DNA of 64,000 nt from Escherichia phage dhaeg: sequence record MN850609.1; one strand, written 5' to 3'. Of this stretch, positions 2,470-10,076 are shown piece by piece. Position 1 is the first letter of the stretch. Every line of letters starts with the position of its first letter. Both the position numbers and the translations under genes were made by a program. Under the pieces are notes generated by a model that did not search any database, was not told the origin of the DNA, and was given only the letters and a program-made list of their open reading frames with translations.

Positions 2470-2745
2470 ATGACTAAAATTGAAATCGTTTCCGAAATTG
2501 CTACTATTGTTTCTATTTTGATTAAAACGGATTGTGAAGACATCATGCAACGTCGTGATGAGTTTATTGCCTTTTTGAATGAGTTGGGTATTCGTAATGA
2601 ACATGGAAAGGAACTTAATGGCCTATCTTTTAATAAACTCTTTAAGTCTTTAACTGAAGATGAACGTGATACTCTTATTGAGCAATTTAATGAAGGGTAT
2701 GAAGATATACACCGTTATCTAATGATGTATACCTCCAATTTTTAA
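2470..2745 (+). CDS. asiA: AsiA anti-sigma70 factor
   Basis: 91 aa; blocks IASILIK, FIAFLNE, LIEQFNEGYE and RYLMMYT match T4 AsiA (90 aa) from memory. Confidence 0.85.
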   Translation: MTKIEIVSEIATIVSILIKTDCEDIMQRRDEFIAFLNELGIRNEHGKELNGLSFNKLFKSLTEDERDTLIEQFNEGYEDIHRYLMMYTSNF

Positions 2746-3395
2746 CGAGTTCGACCTAATGTTCTCCCAGCCTGACCACACATAGACGAAAGTCTAGGAA
2801 ATCCTAAATCCGGTTTGATATCGTACCAATATAATGATATCGAGCCGGCATAGATGTTATCCAAATTAAAAAACGGGCATGAAAACATATAAGTGAAATG
2901 GGTTTTCTCCTTTGTAGGGAGAAACACAGATTCAGTAGATGATTCAAAATAGTTCCCGTTAACTCCCGCCATATACTCTACTGACGTTTTGTCAATCGGG
3001 AATCCTCCCGTATTTTTTGCGTCTACCGTTTCCGGTAATTTACCCTCATAAGCTACCATATCCACAAAATAATTCATGTTGGTTGGCCTAAAAGAATATA
3101 TTGCTGTGAAGTCTGCGCCTGAAGAAGAATGCACTATTCGGAGCTGCTCGATAGCCGCAATTTTAAATCTATTGTCCTGGTCTTGTCTAATCATTTCAGT
3201 ATAAGAGGCATAAGTTGTCTCTTTGTAAAAGTTTAGAATATGCTCGCCTTTATACCAAACCAATGCCATAAAGAACAATAATATTACGACTAGGACCCGG
3301 GAAAAAACTACTTTCCCGGAAGAAGTATCTTTAAAAATTCTATCAAGAAGTCCAAAAAGTAGGTCTGTTATTGAAAATCCTACTTTTGGTTCCAT
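2742..3395 (-). CDS. t: holin T
   Basis: 217 aa; DLLFGLLDRIFKD..GKV..SRV.VVILLF.MA.VWY N-terminus, single TM then large periplasmic domain, C-terminal NLDNIYAG; matches T4 T holin (218 aa). Confidence 0.9.
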   Translation of the reverse strand: MEPKVGFSITDLLFGLLDRIFKDTSSGKVVFSRVLVVILLFFMALVWYKGEHILNFYKETTYASYTEMIRQDQDNRFKIAAIEQLRIVHSSSGADFTAIYSFRPTNMNYFVDMVAYEGKLPETVDAKNTGGFPIDKTSVEYMAGVNGNYFESSTESVFLPTKEKTHFTYMFSCPFFNLDNIYAGSISLYWYDIKPDLGFPRLSSMCGQAGRTLGRTR

Positions 3396-3413: not shown

Positions 3414-3421
3414 TATTTATA
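3414..3421 (-). promoter_or_regulatory. late promoter TATAAATA for t
   Basis: reverse complement of tatttata gives TATAAATA about 19 nt upstream of the t start codon. Confidence 0.6.
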
Positions 3422-3432
3422 ATACAGAAGTA

Positions 3433-4221
3433 TTAAACTCGGCTGCCGTGAATAGTACCAACGTTTTGCCAAGAAGGAGCATTACCTGTAACGGCTGCAC
3501 CAGCAGAACCACCTGCAGAAGTATAAACGTTAGAACCCCATCCTCGTCCGCCGCCAGCACCAACGTTACCACCATTACCTGCACCGTATTGGACCGTGGT
3601 ACCACCTGTGCCTGCAGCAGTTAGGGATGCGTTTGAACCTGACAATATGCTATCTGAACCGATTTTGCCGCCGACACCAAATGGTCTACCACCACCGCCA
3701 CCACAGGAACCGTTAGTCGGGTAGTTATTTTGCAATGATACTGCGCCACCGCCACCGCCACCACCAGCAATAGTACCGTTGTTCCGAATGCGTAATTTGG
3801 TTCCTGCTGAGTTACGTATCGCAACACCGCCATTTCCACCTGCTGAACCGTTAGTTGAACCATTACCGCCGCGTCCATAAACAGTTACACCACTATTAAT
3901 AGTAAGTTGAATATATGCATTAGGAAGGTCGCTAGGAAATTCTAAACAAGCATTACCTGTACTATTAGATACTATGTTGCCGGTTACTGTGATAACGACA
4001 GGCGCACTGCCTTGGGCCCTCATCCAATTAATTAGTGTATTTTTGTCATAAGAGTTATTAGCCCCTATTGAATAGTAAATTTCTTTTGATTGGTTAGCCA
4101 TTGAACCCATCCAACCAGGAACAGCTACACGAACGTCTCGCATTGCCGCATCCATCCAACGTTGACCTGTTTCATCAACTGCGGATTGTCCAATCCAACC
4201 AGGTAATCCTACAATTGCCAT
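3433..4221 (-). CDS. 38: gp38 receptor-recognising adhesin, T2-type with glycine-rich motifs
   Basis: 262 aa; N-terminus MAIVGLPGWIGQSAVDE typical of T2-type gp38; poly-Gly tracts (GGGGGGG, GGGGGRPFGVGG) separated by variable segments. Confidence 0.8.
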   Translation of the reverse strand: MAIVGLPGWIGQSAVDETGQRWMDAAMRDVRVAVPGWMGSMANQSKEIYYSIGANNSYDKNTLINWMRAQGSAPVVITVTGNIVSNSTGNACLEFPSDLPNAYIQLTINSGVTVYGRGGNGSTNGSAGGNGGVAIRNSAGTKLRIRNNGTIAGGGGGGGAVSLQNNYPTNGSCGGGGGRPFGVGGKIGSDSILSGSNASLTAAGTGGTTVQYGAGNGGNVGAGGGRGWGSNVYTSAGGSAGAAVTGNAPSWQNVGTIHGSRV

Positions 4222-4232
4222 TATAAATCCTT

Positions 4233-4250
4233 AGAGGGCCGAAGCCCTCT
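4233..4250 (-). other. stem-loop between genes 37 and 38 (agagggc-cgaa-gccctct)
   Basis: perfect 7-bp GC-rich inverted repeat with 4-nt loop; no T-run follows on the minus strand, so likely an RNA stability or processing hairpin rather than a terminator. Confidence 0.4.
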
Positions 4251-4252
4251 TA

Positions 4253-7200
4253 TTAGTTTAACTTAGCTTCAAGTTCTTTTACTTTAGCCGACAGGGTTTT
4301 AACTGCTTCAATTAATAGAGCAACTTGTGCCTGAGTCGAAACTGTCAGAACTTTATTACCTTTGATATCTTCAACTTCACGAATAGCTTCAGGTAATACA
4401 TCATTCAATTTCTGAGCAATAACACCAGCTTCAGTATGAACAACCTCTCCACCAATATAATCAGCTTTATCATAGATTAAACCATCAAGCTGTTCAACCT
4501 TTTCAAGAGCGTTTTCAATTGGTTTGAAGTTTGATTTCAAACGAATATCAGAACGAATATAAACGTTTGGAGCATTTATATTCATATCTGAATAAGTGTC
4601 GCCACCTTGGAATCTCATTCGGCGGGCGGCATTGGTCCAAACTTCTAAAAGCCCGTCACCAACTTGTCTGAAACCCGTATCGTTATCGCCAATTGCAATC
4701 GAGTTACCACCCCAGGCATTAGTTGTGTTGACACCAAAGGCACCAATTTGAGGCGTATTAATCTTGGTATTAACGTTAAGAGTAGTTATACCGTTTACTT
4801 CACACTGGTTATATGAAGAACGGTTTGCACCACCTGGAGTTTTTTCGAAATAAACAATATAATTTGATTCGTCAGCTATTTCAATACGGTTTCCACGAGA
4901 AGCATCACCTGCATGGAATATACACATGTTTCTCGGGTTCGCCCCAGACTTATCAAAGTTAATGCTTCCATTATTTTTGAGGTTAAGGCCATTATAAAAC
5001 TCTGCAACTCCAGAAACACTCATAGAGTTTGAAATAGTTACTTTACCGGAAGCAATATTGATAGAAAAAGGCCTTAAACTGTTGTTAGAACCAGAGGCTT
5101 TAGTCTTATCAGTGTCAGTGTTCTTATCTGTTAATAATATATGGAACGTCGTACCATCATTATAAAACAGAGTAGCGGCAGAACCACTTTCATCACCATT
5201 GGATTTATGGCGGAAACCTACAGTTGTATTAGCAACAAAGGTGGCATTTGTAGAAATATTAGAACTACCCGCGTCAAAAACGTCTGAGCTATTATTAAGA
5301 AGTTTAAAAACACGACCTTTAACAGTATCTACAGGAAGCTCTTCTACCGGTGATTGCGTAGGCCCGTATAATCCATGAACTACTACTGAGGCGTTTTCTG
5401 AAGTGCTATATTCTAGAGTAAGTCTATTTAAATAAGTGCCACAATTAATATAAACATCATACTCATCGCCTGAGGTATTAACATACGCAATATCTTTAAT
5501 AGCATCTGTTTCACGTTGCCATAAAACACCGTTAATTCCTTTAGGCGTATTATTACCAGAACGTAATACAATTTCATTAATTGTTGCTTGTTTGAAAATA
5601 CCAACGTTAAAACCAGAGCCGCCTGTTATTTTAAATTGGACCGTAGCTACACCTTGAGGCATATTTACTGTTGCCAATTTATACCAACCACTTGCAGAAG
5701 AATAGTTAATCCAGCCCGTGGTAACTTTGCGGTCTAAAGTAGTATTCAGGTTAGAGAAATTACCAGAACCACCAGTGATATTACCATCCGTACCTAGATA
5801 AACAGAACCGCCAGCAGAAACACGTTTAGGAGATACAAAATCACCTGATTTAGTGAATTCCCAACCGTAGTCCGCAATCTGAGCACCGGTCGAACCACCA
5901 TCACCACCAGCATGATAATGAACGCGGAAGTTGCCGTTATTCAACAAAGTACCGATTGAAAAACATCCATTACCCTGAACATAACGTTGCTTAATCATTG
6001 GAACATAAGTGCTAGTATCATCTCGGTCAATATTCATGTAGAATGGAGCGCGGACATTTTCATTATTCTGGGAAGCAAATGAACCTGCACCAGCTGAACG
6101 ACCATTTGCATCCATCAAAGCATTTATATAAGCACCGTTTTCCAGGTCCATACGATAGTTAGGGTTAATTTTAGAATGACTGTTAATTGTAATCAAGAAT
6201 GCTTTGGTATCAATATTCAGCAGGCCATCGCCTCGAGCCGAGTTGCCTATCATTAAAGAATGGCCTATATTAATTGCGCCAGTACCTAATTCAATACTAA
6301 ATGGACGTAAATTGCTTATCGGCCCGTTTTCCCCTTCGTTTTCATTGGTTGGGATAATATGCAATGATGTTTCTGAGCGGCGGAAAATAGCCCCATACCG
6401 GTCGTTCCAAATTCTTAATGCGTCGTTAACGCCACCAATTTTAACCTGGCCGCTTATATTAGCGCCGCCGCGAATAGCCGCTCCATTTTCAAAAGTAACA
6501 CCACCACCAAAAGAACCTTTACCTGAAGCGGTAATATCGCCAAGACCAACGATATGACCTGTTTCAACAGTTCCGTTAAACTTAAAATTAACAGGTCCTA
6601 CACCACCAGCAACGGATGGATTAGTACGTTGAGCATAGAAATAATATCCTTGTGAGTCTGATACTTCGAATACAGTTTCTCTATTACCACCGCCCGCGTT
6701 AAATGAGTTACCCCATGCCTTAATTGTAACGGTATTTTTGTTCTGGCCATTTCGGGTGCCGGCGTCCCAGTTAATGGTTTTAGTACCATCTACACCGGAA
6801 GGAGCTTTAAATGATAATGCATTGGTATTATCATCACCGTTTAAAAATAAACCAGTACGCATAGAAATGCGATTGGTGGAGTCAAATGTACCATCTGCTC
6901 TAATAGCAACTCTATTGGACCCGGTTTTAACATCTAAAATACCCGGCTCAACAAGAAGCCCGTCGCCCATACTAACAGACATACGACCTTGGCCACGGAA
7001 ATAGTGATACATCTTTGCATTGCTGCTATAACCGATATGAGTCTGCCCATCACCGTTATTATTATCGTCGACATCAGTGCGTGCAGTAAACATTGCTTGG
7101 TTGTTATTTGGGAAATCCCATGTAGTACCTGAATCACGGCTATAACCAACCATCAATTTCTTAGTGCTATTAATACCGTTATTCAAAATGGTAGCAGATG

Positions 7201-8227
7201 AAATACCATTAGCCATGAAATCAATAACACCATCGCGGACCCATTTAATACCGGTATCGTTATCGCCAATTGCAATACCAATAGAAATGGCGGAATCTAA
7301 AGGATAGCGTCCATTTGTACCGTTATCCGGAAGACCTACTGAAATAGATTTACCCGCAGTAATACGTCCAGAGTTATCAAACGCCCATTGGAAAGATGAA
7401 GGACCTACACCAGTCCACCAAGAAATTTCTTGTGGTTTACCTTTGCGACAATCAGCAATTTCATGGAAAATACTTGATGCACTTGATGCACGCAATTTAC
7501 GCAAATAGTTTAAACCGTTAGTAGTATCATCAGAGCCATCAGCAGGTGGATTATAAACCCAGGTAGGTAATGAAACCCAATCATACCCGATGTTGGCGTT
7601 AGCTACAAATGTTTTTGTACTGAAATTAATATTTTTGGTAACAATTTCAGGACCGGTGATAATACCATTAGCTGAATTTATGTTTCCTGATGCAGAAATA
7701 TTACCTGCTGATACCATTAAACTACCGCTATCAACTTGAAAATTACCATTACGATTAAAGGTCCAATATTTTGAATCACCTGTTTCATTAATATAGTGGA
7801 ATTTAAAACTGCCTTCGTTTACTAATGTACCTGCTGAAAAAGTACCGTCTTTATAACGTTGCTTAATCAAAGGGTGGTATTCTGAAACAGAAGTAGTTGA
7901 ACTCAAATCTGTAAAGATAGGGGCTTTATTCAGATGTTGGTTAGCCCAGGCGCCGTTGCCAGCTGTTTTAGGCAGGAATTCGATGTATTTACCTGCATAA
8001 ACATATTGGTTGCCATTGAGGTTAAATGTCCCGTTTTGAAGAACATCCCCATCAATGGTCCCACCCTTTGCAAAGCCTAAATCAATAATCTGACCTTGGT
8101 CTGACTTAGTAAAAATAGTGCGATCACGCAAGTTAATAGCCAGTTCACCTTCATCTAACTGGGCTGCAGTAGGCTTGGCTCCTGCTATTTTACTTCTTTT
8201 AAATTGTATCGATTTTAAAGTAGCCAT
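4253..8227 (-). CDS. 37: long tail fibre distal subunit gp37
   Basis: 1324 aa; position between gp36 and gp38; Gly/Asn/Thr/Ser-rich fibrous composition; size fits T2-type gp37. Confidence 0.85.
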   Translation of the reverse strand: MATLKSIQFKRSKIAGAKPTAAQLDEGELAINLRDRTIFTKSDQGQIIDLGFAKGGTIDGDVLQNGTFNLNGNQYVYAGKYIEFLPKTAGNGAWANQHLNKAPIFTDLSSTTSVSEYHPLIKQRYKDGTFSAGTLVNEGSFKFHYINETGDSKYWTFNRNGNFQVDSGSLMVSAGNISASGNINSANGIITGPEIVTKNINFSTKTFVANANIGYDWVSLPTWVYNPPADGSDDTTNGLNYLRKLRASSASSIFHEIADCRKGKPQEISWWTGVGPSSFQWAFDNSGRITAGKSISVGLPDNGTNGRYPLDSAISIGIAIGDNDTGIKWVRDGVIDFMANGISSATILNNGINSTKKLMVGYSRDSGTTWDFPNNNQAMFTARTDVDDNNNGDGQTHIGYSSNAKMYHYFRGQGRMSVSMGDGLLVEPGILDVKTGSNRVAIRADGTFDSTNRISMRTGLFLNGDDNTNALSFKAPSGVDGTKTINWDAGTRNGQNKNTVTIKAWGNSFNAGGGNRETVFEVSDSQGYYFYAQRTNPSVAGGVGPVNFKFNGTVETGHIVGLGDITASGKGSFGGGVTFENGAAIRGGANISGQVKIGGVNDALRIWNDRYGAIFRRSETSLHIIPTNENEGENGPISNLRPFSIELGTGAINIGHSLMIGNSARGDGLLNIDTKAFLITINSHSKINPNYRMDLENGAYINALMDANGRSAGAGSFASQNNENVRAPFYMNIDRDDTSTYVPMIKQRYVQGNGCFSIGTLLNNGNFRVHYHAGGDGGSTGAQIADYGWEFTKSGDFVSPKRVSAGGSVYLGTDGNITGGSGNFSNLNTTLDRKVTTGWINYSSASGWYKLATVNMPQGVATVQFKITGGSGFNVGIFKQATINEIVLRSGNNTPKGINGVLWQRETDAIKDIAYVNTSGDEYDVYINCGTYLNRLTLEYSTSENASVVVHGLYGPTQSPVEELPVDTVKGRVFKLLNNSSDVFDAGSSNISTNATFVANTTVGFRHKSNGDESGSAATLFYNDGTTFHILLTDKNTDTDKTKASGSNNSLRPFSINIASGKVTISNSMSVSGVAEFYNGLNLKNNGSINFDKSGANPRNMCIFHAGDASRGNRIEIADESNYIVYFEKTPGGANRSSYNQCEVNGITTLNVNTKINTPQIGAFGVNTTNAWGGNSIAIGDNDTGFRQVGDGLLEVWTNAARRMRFQGGDTYSDMNINAPNVYIRSDIRLKSNFKPIENALEKVEQLDGLIYDKADYIGGEVVHTEAGVIAQKLNDVLPEAIREVEDIKGNKVLTVSTQAQVALLIEAVKTLSAKVKELEAKLN

Positions 8228-8934: not shown

Positions 8935-8953
8935 AGGGACCTCACGGTCCCTT
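8935..8953 (-). terminator. intrinsic terminator after gene 35
   Basis: agggacc-tcac-ggtccct hairpin followed on minus strand by TTTTT. Confidence 0.55.
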
Positions 8954-10076
8954 AATATTTTTCTTTAAATTCTTGAACAAATACTTTACCTGCGTTACCG
9001 GATGATTTATCATTCAACTGTGCAATAACATTATCCATTGAACGGGTTTCTGTACCAAAGTTCATACGAATACCGTTAACACCAATTTCAGCGGATTTAG
9101 GAGTATCTTCAGGTCTAGCTATTTCACCAAACACAACATTTCTAACACCACCTTGGCCGTCTAGGACAGTTTTTCTGGCATATAAGGTAAATCCATTAGC
9201 ATTTGGTGGAACTTCTACTACACGCTCAAAGGACATCCATGCGCCTGCCGGTGGAGAGCCAGCTCCTACAGGAATATTGATATCAGTGGATTGAAGCATT
9301 TCTTGGCCATTAAAAAATCGTATGGACATCTGGGTCGTCCCTAAATCTTTTAAAGCCTGGTCATAGGTCATTTGGAATTTAAGATAAAAGAAATCTCCTG
9401 GAACCATATTATAATCTGCACAAGGAGTTATAGTGGCTTCAGTAGGAAACCTTTTAATTTCTTGGGTAGCTCCACTATAATAAGTATTTTCATCTTCGAC
9501 AATTCTAACCGGGAATCCTGTCCCACCTACGTCATTAAAATTATCATAAACTACTTCTAACGGAGTTGAAACATCTTCAACTAAAACACCGTCGTTATAA
9601 AGAACGTGCTCCATTACAATGGCATTTCTTCCTGAAACGTAAAAAGCTGAATAAGAAGTATCCACTTTATCAATGAGCCATTTATCCGGAAAGGCCGCAG
9701 ACCCTGCAGCTCTAAACCAATCAATTAACACTTGCGAGGCGTTTAATTTGCCGGAAGAAATAAAGCAAACAATTCTACCGGCAGGTATAGAAGAAATATA
9801 AGTTATAAACGCTTGGGAAATAACATCATGGTCTTTGGTAAAGGCGTATGATTTTGTAGCCACTATTGTGTTATTTGTCGGGTCTATTTCAACCAAATTT
9901 AGCCCGGATTGGAAATTCTGAGGACCGAAGTCCTCATCTTGAAATTTAATATAAGCCTTTTTAGTAGACTTAGTACAGCTCCCTGCTATACTAAGTTTAT
10001 AACTAACGGCATTATTTTCAGATAGTACAGGAATTTGAACGTAATCTTGTCCAAATTCAGCCATAAATCTTTCCAT
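8952..10076 (-). CDS. 35: long tail fibre hinge connector gp35
   Basis: 374 aa (T4 gp35 about 372 aa); synteny. Confidence 0.8.
   Translation of the reverse strand: MERFMAEFGQDYVQIPVLSENNAVSYKLSIAGSCTKSTKKAYIKFQDEDFGPQNFQSGLNLVEIDPTNNTIVATKSYAFTKDHDVISQAFITYISSIPAGRIVCFISSGKLNASQVLIDWFRAAGSAAFPDKWLIDKVDTSYSAFYVSGRNAIVMEHVLYNDGVLVEDVSTPLEVVYDNFNDVGGTGFPVRIVEDENTYYSGATQEIKRFPTEATITPCADYNMVPGDFFYLKFQMTYDQALKDLGTTQMSIRFFNGQEMLQSTDINIPVGAGSPPAGAWMSFERVVEVPPNANGFTLYARKTVLDGQGGVRNVVFGEIARPEDTPKSAEIGVNGIRMNFGTETRSMDNVIAQLNDKSSGNAGKVFVQEFKEKY

Follow-up and report, generated by a model that had tools for sequence, protein, structure and literature searches.

Gene 38 of Escherichia phage dhaeg: a mosaic allele in the T2-type long tail fibre adhesin family

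In T4, gp38 is a tail fibre assembly chaperone that is not a component of the virion, and gp37 itself binds the receptor. T2 gp38 recognises FadL and, in some reports, OmpF (PMC3157838; PMC12529663), and two related proteins have been solved structurally. S16 gp37-gp38 (PDB 6F45; Dunne et al., 2018) combines an attachment domain, a beta-helix and a polyglycine-II (PGII) sandwich with protruding loops, the same arrangement as in the protein described here, to which S16 gp38 (249 aa) is about 47% identical; its loops, which belong to the hypervariable segments (HVSs), are different and shorter, and its receptor is Salmonella OmpC. The receptor-binding domain of PP01 gp38 (PDB 9V85; mBio 2026, PMC12892980) has the same fold, with loops A-E mapping onto HVS1-4; PP01 gp38 is 46% identical, has a T6-like N-terminus and binds OmpC of O157. 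The literature already covers the family, the structure and modular evolution of its members and their engineering through swapped cassettes, and the gene described here, a slightly new mosaic allele of this well-understood family and not a new kind of thing, advances no open question. Here, we compare it with these systems, using a stretch of 64,000 nucleotides of the dhaeg record MN850609.1 (the window). Positions 3433-4221 very probably encode, on the minus strand, a functional T2-type gp38 adhesin of a Dhakavirus-like T-even coliphage, working by the docking and loop mechanism proposed below.

Gene 38 and its family

The gene and its upstream signals are as follows.

3433..4221, minus strand: gene 38, T2-type gp38 long tail fibre adhesin, 262 aa, stop codon at 3433-3435 (ORF listing, Pfam, T2 identity, PDB 6F45_D)
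4228-4232, minus strand: Shine-Dalgarno AAGGA, after the UUCG hairpin and correctly spaced for g38 (sequence)
4233..4250, minus strand: intercistronic hairpin with UUCG tetraloop in the g37/g38 gap, AGAGGGC-UUCG-GCCCUCU (sequence; MFE -13.4 kcal/mol; identical in T2)

The 262-aa reading frame reported in the first-pass annotation is intact at exactly these coordinates, and the strand, which had been left unstated, is minus. ORF listing and Pfam give the canonical gene order g36-g37-g38-t, with the minus strand carrying gp37 (4253-8227), gp38 and the holin t (2742-3395). The window yielded neither RNA genes nor matches to Rfam families. A match to ILEI in gp35 was discarded as a phage-specific oddity; it is family-wide, being found also in T6, in RB69 and, at lower strength, in S16.

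The protein is matched by Pfam GP38 (PF05268; E 8e-77, 258 bits with a cutoff of 25) over aa 47-262 and the complete model (1-218 of 218), by Gp38_N (PF21721; E 4e-16, 59 bits) over aa 1-42, and by PHROG 2056, 'tail fiber protein; host specificity' (E 2e-95). T2 gp38 has the same length and the same two domains, and aligns without gaps at 229 of 262 identical residues (87%); the two phages further share the N-terminal subtype, a matching gp37 tip, the HVS allele set, the gene order and the UUCG hairpin. Among sequences in the PDB, S16 gp38 (6F45_D, E 2e-43) and PP01 gp38 (E 3e-42) are matched. Relatives at 90-96% identity are mostly recorded as 'long tail fiber adhesin' or 'tail fiber protein; host specificity'. 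Two proteins bearing the former name, from dhabil (MN850621) and CLB_P2 (OL770107), are 96.2% identical to that of dhaeg, and their holin and asiA flank has 100% nucleotide identity over window positions 3307-2512.

From its name and its position between g37 and t, the gene could also be taken for a T4-type gp38, which assists fibre assembly as a chaperone, is left out of the virion and leaves receptor binding to gp37, and some GenBank relatives do carry the mistaken label 'distal long tail fiber assembly catalyst'. Name and position are, however, all that the two have in common: T4 gp38 has 183 aa of dissimilar sequence, BLASTP found no similarity to it (best E 0.23 over 13 aa), T4 gp38 itself matches no Pfam family, including GP38 and Gp38_N, and in a blastn comparison with the T4 locus nothing aligns across 3433-4221. 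The partner protein differs as well, in that the C-terminus of gp37 lacks the His-rich needle of T4 gp37, to whose C-terminus it is unrelated, and carries a T2-type tip and an S74 domain. A T4-type chaperone was consequently rejected on BLASTP, Pfam and blastn, none of which gave a match to T4, and we regard it as practically impossible. The earlier assignment to T2-type adhesins rather than T4-type chaperones held in every element that could be tested (Pfam, PHROG, T2 identity, the T4 null results and the fold).

The gene is under purifying selection and has probably retained its function, as indicated by 107 synonymous against 33 non-synonymous codon differences from T2. Glycine makes up 59 of the 262 residues, and 48 of these 59 lie within aa 116-262 (33% of the segment), far beyond the chance level. 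Three ORFs of 58-85 aa overlap the gene in other frames, GGN-rich DNA remaining open in several frames, and could suggest that the glycine-rich frame is a compositional artefact, or the gene a decaying, non-functional copy. Against this stand the full-length frame, free of frameshift and internal stop, in which both Pfam domains are matched end to end, as well as the codon differences, the correctly spaced Shine-Dalgarno sequence and the occurrence of the identical protein on three independent assembled contigs; decay or artefact is thereby effectively refuted, and its probability is negligible.

Architecture and attachment to gp37

Column entropy, computed across 111 gp38 homologues, separates five glycine-rich motifs (GRMs; 0.14-1.01 bits) that alternate with four HVSs (1.9-2.8 bits) and are followed by a conserved C-terminal end. 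This alternation is the family layout given by Trojet 2011 (PMC3157838), which also describes a conserved C-terminal extremity of gp38. The segments of the protein are listed below; entropies are in bits.

4084..4221, minus strand: N-terminal attachment domain, aa 1-46, T2 subtype, predicted to dock onto the gp37 tip (Gp38_N at aa 1-42; 83% T2 identity; modelled helices at aa 10-18, 23-29 and 38-41)
3877..4083, minus strand: N-terminal part of the beta-helix domain, aa 47-115, holding the mosaic patch 3975-4126 (AF2 beta-strands at aa 48-115; informative sites; sliding identity)
3859..3876, minus strand: GRM1, aa 116-121, GRGGNG (entropy 0.14; invariant in the labelled gp38 alignment)
3769..3858, minus strand: HVS1, aa 122-151, of which only aa 122-130 (putative loop A) are variable (entropy 1.90, against 0.78 for aa 131-151)
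3745..3768, minus strand: GRM2, aa 152-159, AGGGGGGG, holding a 21-nt pure GGN run at 3745-3765 (entropy 0.21)
3703..3744, minus strand: HVS2, aa 160-173, AVSLQNNYPTNGSC, putative receptor loop B (entropy 2.79; pLDDT dip)
3667..3702, minus strand: GRM3, aa 174-185, GGGGGRPFGVGG, holding a 15-nt pure GGN run at 3688-3702 (entropy 0.54)
3583..3666, minus strand: HVS3, aa 186-213, putative receptor loops C and D, including D190 (entropy 2.23)
3547..3582, minus strand: GRM4, aa 214-225, AGNGGNVGAGGG (entropy 1.01; GNGG invariant in the labelled gp38 alignment)
3514..3546, minus strand: HVS4, aa 226-236, RGWGSNVYTSA, putative receptor loop E (entropy 2.53)
3484..3513, minus strand: GRM5, aa 237-246, GGSAGAAVTG (entropy 0.83)
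3436..3483, minus strand: conserved C-terminal segment 'Cfin', aa 247-262, returning to the beta-helix (entropy 1.07; AF2 beta-strands at aa 244-258)

An AlphaFold (AF2) model of the protein (pLDDT 90.9, pTM 0.86) superposes on PP01 9V85_C with a TM of 0.93 and an rmsd of 1.5 A over 219 columns (Foldseek), and on S16 6F45_D with a TM of 0.81 (Foldseek E 4e-22); apart from these two, Foldseek retrieved no fold from the PDB below E = 5. In silico, the fold is thus that of an attachment domain, a beta-helix and a polyglycine-II sandwich. The variable segments announced by the first-pass annotation exist; they span 11-30 aa, so that not all are short, and aa 131-151 of HVS1 are conserved, are modelled as beta-strands and can be read as beta-helix. 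Loop A was mapped from the PP01 structure paper (PMC12892980) together with the alignment to the PDB sequence matches. Model confidence dips in HVS2, with pLDDT below 50 at aa 165-167; adsorption of PP01 requires the counterpart of this segment, loop B (PMC12892980).

The partner of gp38 is encoded directly upstream.

4253..8227, minus strand: gene 37, distal long tail fibre subunit, 1324 aa, trimeric shaft expected to carry gp38 (ORF listing; T2 gp37 identity)
4553..4783, minus strand: gp37 tip module, aa 1149-1225, with a GDNDTG motif, predicted docking site for the gp38 N-terminus (T2 identity; 6F45_A match)
4256..4552, minus strand: gp37 intramolecular chaperone, Peptidase_S74, aa 1226-1324 (Pfam PF13884, E 3.5e-14, at aa 1226-1282)

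Identity to T2 gp37 is only 52% across aa 1-1073 and 71% in the C-terminal 175 aa, and the tip and C-terminus of the protein are 70-71% identical to T2 as opposed to 35-39% to T6, RB69, Bp7 and S16. The tip also matches the S16 gp37 fragment that was crystallised with gp38 (6F45_A, E 4.8e-7). On the side of gp38, aa 1-46 are 83% identical to T2, 61% to Bp7, 57% to T6, 45% to S16 and 41% to RB69, which bears out the T2-type N-terminus claimed earlier; these five phages were the subtype references, and a K3 subtype is excluded only indirectly by them. The gp38 N-terminus and the gp37 C-terminus hence vary together, which is what Trojet 2011 (PMC3157838) predicts in its lock-and-key model.

From these modules and from work on T2, S16 and PP01, an order of events can be proposed. 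The gp37 chains would trimerise with the aid of the C-terminal S74 chaperone (aa 1226-1324), which would then cut itself off. S74 domains self-cleave, T2 gp37 is processed, and the SDIRLK motif is common to T2 and dhaeg, so that cleavage is predicted just before S1226, between YIR and SDIRLK. One gp38 monomer, a stoichiometry taken over from the same systems, would attach to the exposed tip of gp37 (aa ~1149-1225) through its T2-subtype aa 1-46, placing gp38 at the end of the fibre. The rest of gp38 would form a small beta-helix (aa 47-115, 131-151 and 247-262) topped by the five-GRM polyglycine-II sandwich, from which the four HVSs may project as loops A-E and contact the extracellular loops of a beta-barrel protein in the outer membrane, by analogy with the three described adhesins. 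This reversible binding of gp38 would be the first step that determines host range, before the short tail fibres engage LPS. A phage of this kind would recognise its primary receptor by the gp38 cap and not by gp37, which is of use to annotators and to designers of phage therapy.

Glycine codons and mosaicism of the locus

The region was first described as several poly-glycine tracts encoded by near-perfect (ggt/ggc/gga)n repeats. A glycine-rich scaffold is real, but only two of its tracts are truly homopolymeric, one of seven glycines (aa 153-159, window 3745-3765, GGT GGT GGC GGT GGC GGT GGC) and one of five (aa 174-178, window 3688-3702); the remaining glycines of the region form GG and GGG doublets and triplets broken by N, S, A or R. 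At the DNA level the description was overstated, since pure GGN runs number two only, of 21 and 15 nt, and Tandem Repeats Finder reports a single 23-nt array of period 6 with a score of 39, under the default threshold of 50; a long tandem repeat was rejected on this ground. The scaffold is made of five short glycine-rich motifs and not of a long DNA repeat. All differences from T2 in GRM1-GRM4 are synonymous third-position changes, and GRM5 contains one replacement. The conservation of the tracts is therefore explained by the glycine requirement of the protein, the glycine codons being present primarily because the PGII lattice needs glycine.

It has also been proposed that the (GGN)n runs matter chiefly as DNA repeats, that is, as recombination substrates that made this allele and drive host-range switching. 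Several observations can be cited in favour. The longest identical nucleotide stretches that the gene shares with divergent alleles lie in GRM3, at 23 nt for RB69 and 26 nt for Bp7, and crossovers in or near conserved motifs have been described (Tetart 1998; Trojet 2011). The gp38 of CJ20 is VR20/T2-like to about aa 165, has only 47-69% nucleotide identity across aa 181-239 and is again at 78-96% beyond, from aa 240; in sequence this pattern is a cassette swap with GRM3 and GRM5 as its limits. An engineered swap moved only the part from HVS2 onwards, and functional T2/PP01 chimeras joined within this C-terminal region are published (PMC12892980). The motifs of dhaeg, in contrast, offer short runs and synonymous differences that the glycine requirement accounts for, and the longest exact matches to T6 and S16 are only 12 nt. 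Furthermore, the sole recombination junction detectable inside the allele, at nt 247-261 (aa 83-87), lies in the beta-helix and outside the glycine tracts, the principal breakpoint of the locus falls within gp37, around window position 4700, and crosses of RB5 with RB32/RB33 preferred exchange at conserved sequences flanking the specificity domain. A primary role as DNA repeats is thus improbable. Under the glycine requirement, which we prefer as the explanation, the GRMs are, as a by-product, the sole stretches in which divergent alleles keep nucleotide identity, and can act as crossover points for swaps of loop cassettes.

The locus is a clean case of fine-scale tail fibre mosaicism, with a gp38 patch of ~150 nt and three donor-like segments in gp37. 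By informative sites and sliding identity, the patch at 3975-4126 (roughly 150 nt) follows IME341/AnYang and not dhabil; over aa 50-83 the nucleotide identity is 93% to IME341/AnYang, against 75-82% to dhabil. The proteins of dhabil and CLB_P2 have nine of their ten differences from that of dhaeg clustered in aa 50-83, and differ over aa 87-262 by S189T alone. Upstream of about window position 4700, gp37 is unrelated to that of dhabil (25-57%) and resembles those of VR20 and AnYang. That a T2-like Tequatrovirus recently donated gp38 by horizontal transfer was considered and rejected: nucleotide identity to T2 gp38 is only 78.8%, with 107 synonymous codon differences, which points to an old divergence, and the flanking arn and motA are similar at about 80%.

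Receptor prediction

The earlier annotation listed OmpF, OmpC, FadL and Tsx as examples of gp38 receptors; these are general knowledge, and no specific receptor was proposed for this phage. By analogy with T2, we slightly favour FadL as the receptor, possibly together with OmpF. All four HVSs are of the T2 allele type, with 71 of 83 HVS residues identical, 12 different and no indels. Residues D190 and G207 are conserved, and both sites alter adsorption or specificity of T2-type adhesins, D190G being a published T2 escape mutation (PMC12529663) and G207D occurring in SV76. A genome-wide screen found fadL for T2, which was the only FadL phage among the 255 screened, so that one phage alone connects this allele type with FadL. 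In the Dhakavirus isolates P-S15S and P-S17S, FadL is labelled as hypothesised (PMC12753057). Literature searches with Dhakavirus plus gp38, Dhakavirus plus FadL and CLB_P2 by name found no receptor experiment for dhabil or CLB_P2, whose records are the closest to that of dhaeg. If FadL or OmpF is indeed the target, loss of fadL or ompF would be the predicted route to resistance.

Only a little less probable is that the same adhesin has been turned by its loop substitutions towards another receptor: OmpF only, OmpA, OmpC, Tsx, OmpW or an FhuA-dependent one. Of the 33 amino acid differences from T2, 15 fall within aa 116-262 (specificity domain and C-terminal tail); those in or flanking the loops, given as residue here, position and residue in T2, are G125S, V161A, Q164K, N166S, A202D, V210F, S230K and A236E, whereby the T2 charges K164, D202, K230 and E236 are replaced by neutral residues. 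Position 161 is V in dhaeg, A in T2 and T in SV76, and the gp38 proteins of T2 and SV76, which differ only by A161T and G207D, are reported with different receptors (PMC3157838). A receptor switch can follow from as little as one or two HVS changes, as published examples demonstrate; in RB68 a single HVS3 change, Q206L, switches OmpF to OmpW. The Dhakavirus LHE83 uses OmpA, though with a gp38 C-terminus of a different type; OmpA-type alleles, of which K3, Ox2 and M1 would be the named references, entered our comparison only via unlabelled database matches. On the other hand, the HVSs are largely those of T2 and free of indels, they are under purifying selection throughout the T2/Dhakavirus/VR20 clade, published phylogenies show a common receptor among close gp38 relatives (PMC12032242), and Dhakavirus isolates are provisionally assigned to FadL.

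It is also tentatively conceivable that the Dhakavirus allele, with the T2 loop framework minus four charges and with V161, has a receptor preference that differs from that of T2, such as for FadL variants carried by wild E. coli but unusable for T2, or for a different porin. The alleles of T2, SV76 and Dhakavirus would then form a natural series for mapping the loop residues that read FadL.

The gene 38 locus and family assignment

Gene 38 of dhaeg, which the first-pass annotation had placed at 3433-4221, is an intact ORF on the minus strand, and the gp36 and gp35 genes lie upstream of the gp37 gene (ORF listing, Pfam). The features discussed first are:

3433-4221, minus strand: gene 38, intact ORF encoding gp38 (262 aa)
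4253-8227: gene for gp37, the distal long-tail-fibre subunit (1324 aa), directly upstream of gene 38
2742-3395: holin t, downstream of gene 38
3745-3765: pure GGN run of 21 nt, encoding G7
3688-3702: pure GGN run of 15 nt, encoding G5

The product had been read as a T2-type adhesin rather than a fibre-assembly chaperone of the T4 type, and this interpretation is supported. Pfam GP38 matches aa 47-262 over the whole model (258 bits), Gp38_N matches aa 1-42, and PHROG 2056 ("tail fiber protein; host specificity") also matches. T2 gp38 matches the same two Pfam families and aligns without gaps (229/262 identities), while T4 gp38 matches none and has no similarity to the dhaeg protein (E 0.23 over 13 aa). 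Since, in addition, blastn with the T4 locus gave no match across 3433-4221 and the gp37 C-terminus of T4 is unrelated to that of dhaeg, the chaperone reading is ruled out.

The closest annotated long-tail-fibre adhesins are those of Dhakavirus dhabil and CLB_P2 (96.2% identity), followed by those of IME08, IME341, VR20, and AnYang (90-94%). Of the 754 phage records that match, only 20 cover 80% or more of the length; the remainder have only the N-terminal half in common, which makes the T2-type specificity domain a minority allele. Over its first 12 kb the window resembles Dhakavirus, with a best match in the phage collection of 96.6% identity over 71% of the length. The only exact copies of the 262-aa protein were on three contigs, all assembled from publicly available sequencing runs. 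Two of them, from SRR34902444 and SRR34902438 (19.7 and 33.7 kb), also carry a gp37 of 1324 aa, with the same genes downstream, and are likely the source phage itself or close siblings.

The records of T6, JS10, Bp7, and teqsoen still call the adhesin an "assembly catalyst". Beyond ~aa 225, Bp7 gp38 (L012:3726-4517) diverges completely from its RB69-like relatives, having a nonsense-looking tail and lacking the conserved C-terminal end, which points to a frameshift or a sequencing mistake in the GenBank record.

Glycine-rich architecture and fold

Glycine makes up 59 of the 262 residues, 48 of them within aa 116-262. Near-perfect GGN repeats had been claimed for several poly-glycine tracts, a description that holds for the two pure runs; elsewhere the glycines are doublets or triplets split by N, S, A, or R, and Tandem Repeats Finder reported in gene 38 a single 23-nt period-6 array (score 39, under the default threshold). 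Three ORFs of 58-85 aa in other frames of the gene, at 3417-3605 (minus), 3448-3624 (plus), and 3621-3878 (minus), are by-products of the GGN/NCC-rich composition; CJ20 and similar relatives carry equivalent spurious "hypothetical protein" annotations across gp38 and t.

The column entropies and an AlphaFold2 model were both derived from an alignment of dhaeg gp38 and 110 homologues found by database search. Entropies are 0.14, 0.21, 0.54, 1.01, and 0.83 bits for the five glycine-rich motifs (GRM1-5) and reach 1.9-2.8 bits in the hypervariable segments (HVS1-4) between them; aa 131-151, nominally within HVS1, are conserved (0.78 bits). The model has a mean pLDDT of 90.9 and a pTM of 0.86, with pLDDT below 50 only at aa 165-167, inside HVS2. 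In Foldseek searches of the PDB it matched the two solved gp38 adhesins, from PP01 (9V85_C; E 2.5e-22, TM 0.93, rmsd 1.5 A) and S16 (6F45_D; E 4.4e-22, TM 0.81), all else having E >5. Loops A-E of PP01 (PMC12892980), transferred by sequence alignment, map to ~aa 122-127, 163-172, 186-193, 208-212, and 228-234, within HVS1a (the variable part of HVS1), HVS2, HVS3 (two loops), and HVS4.

All of the gp38 biology found here has already been described. The T2/T4 dichotomy was known before, and the GRM/HVS design (Trojet, 2011), the polyglycine-II sandwich (Dunne, 2018; PP01 structure of 2026, PMC12892980), receptor prediction from gp38 phylogeny (Lutz, 2025), and cassette engineering (2026 preprint) have been published.

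Mosaic structure of genes 38 and 37

At 78.8% nucleotide identity to T2, gene 38 differs from it synonymously in 107 codons and non-synonymously in 33, which indicates a functional, anciently diverged gene and rules out recent transfer from T2. Sites that distinguish dhabil from IME341 show it to be like IME341 at ~nt 96-247 (aa 32-83) and like dhabil at nt 261-786. It is a clean mosaic within the Dhakavirus group and, with 96% identity to annotated adhesins, a new allele.

The glycine repeats had been proposed as recombination substrates at the DNA level, an emphasis that proved overstated: the mosaic junction of gene 38 itself sits in the beta-helix, outside the glycine tracts, and GRM1-4 differ from T2 by synonymous changes without exception, their nucleotide conservation being no more than the glycine requirement by itself would give. 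Relatives lend support to exchange at the GRMs. CJ20 gp38 matches VR20/T2 to ~aa 165, falls to 47-69% nucleotide identity across aa 181-239 and is close to them again from aa 240; the swapped HVS3-HVS4 cassette lies between GRM3 and GRM5. GRM3 also carries the longest exact nucleotide matches to the divergent alleles of RB69 (23 nt) and Bp7 (26 nt), while for T6 and S16 the longest match with gene 38 is only 12 nt. Crossovers in or near conserved motifs have been reported, T2/PP01 chimeras are functional (PMC12892980), and engineered exchange from HVS2 onwards switched the receptor.

The partner gp37 is more strongly mosaic than gp38, as the following segments indicate:

4698-4253, minus strand: dhabil-like, 87-100%
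4966-4699, minus strand: AnYang-like, 80-85%
5625-4851, minus strand: VR20-like (Gaprivervirus), 84-93%
3307-2512: holin and asiA flank, 100% dhabil-like

Distal gp37 (4253-5721, minus) is a three-donor mosaic, its last junction coinciding with the beginning of the conserved tip module predicted to bind gp38. Against T2 gp37 the last 175 residues are 71% identical and the first 1073 residues 52%, and aa 1074-1148 do not align. Those 175 residues match the S16 gp37 fragment crystallised with gp38, and the protein ends in a Peptidase_S74 intramolecular chaperone domain starting at S1226 (YIR|SDIRLK). Identity to T2 is 83% for the gp38 N-terminus and 70% for the gp37 C-terminus, against 41-61% and 35-39%, respectively, to T6, RB69, Bp7, and S16. 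Both are T2-type, in keeping with the lock-and-key co-variation of Trojet et al. (2011).

Predicted receptor and intercistronic elements

T2 gp38 recognises FadL, and in some reports OmpF too (PMC3157838; PMC12529663); fadL was the T2 hit in a genome-wide screen, and no other FadL phage was found among 255 screened. The dhaeg HVSs are the same allele set as in T2 (71/83 residues identical, no indels), and D190 and G207 are kept, D190G being a T2 escape mutation (PMC12529663). We consider FadL, with or without OmpF, only slightly better than an even prospect as the receptor, because 15 positions in aa 116-262 differ from T2, four loop-region positions lack the T2 charge, and small changes have switched receptors elsewhere: A161T and G207D are the only differences between T2 and SV76, for which different receptors are nonetheless reported, and one HVS3 change moved RB68 from OmpF to OmpW. 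Substitutions in or beside the loops (dhaeg residue, position, T2 residue) are G125S, V161A, Q164K, N166S, A202D, V210F, S230K, and A236E. Literature searches by the names dhabil and CLB_P2, the closest records, found no receptor experiments for either.

A 7-bp stem capped by a UUCG tetraloop (4233-4250, minus; AGAGGGC-UUCG-GCCCUCU, -13.4 kcal/mol) separates the gp37 stop codon from the gp38 Shine-Dalgarno sequence. T2 has the identical hairpin, although the coding DNA on either side is only ~75-80% identical; its role is probably to stabilise the transcript or to couple translation, like elements known between T4 cistrons. The T4 late-promoter consensus TATAAATA (3414-3421, minus) falls within the 37 nt that separate the gp38 stop from the start of holin t, and a Shine-Dalgarno AAAGGAG follows it ahead of t, an arrangement consistent with late transcription of t. 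ARAGORN found no tRNA genes in the 64-kb window, and no Rfam family reached its gathering threshold there. The proximal hinge connector gp35 (8952-10076, minus) matches Pfam ILEI ("interleukin-like EMT inducer", FAM3/PANDER-like) at aa 57-128 with 34.9 bits, which exceeds the gathering score; since T6 and RB69 gp35, and weakly that of S16, have the same match, it is family-wide rather than phage-specific.
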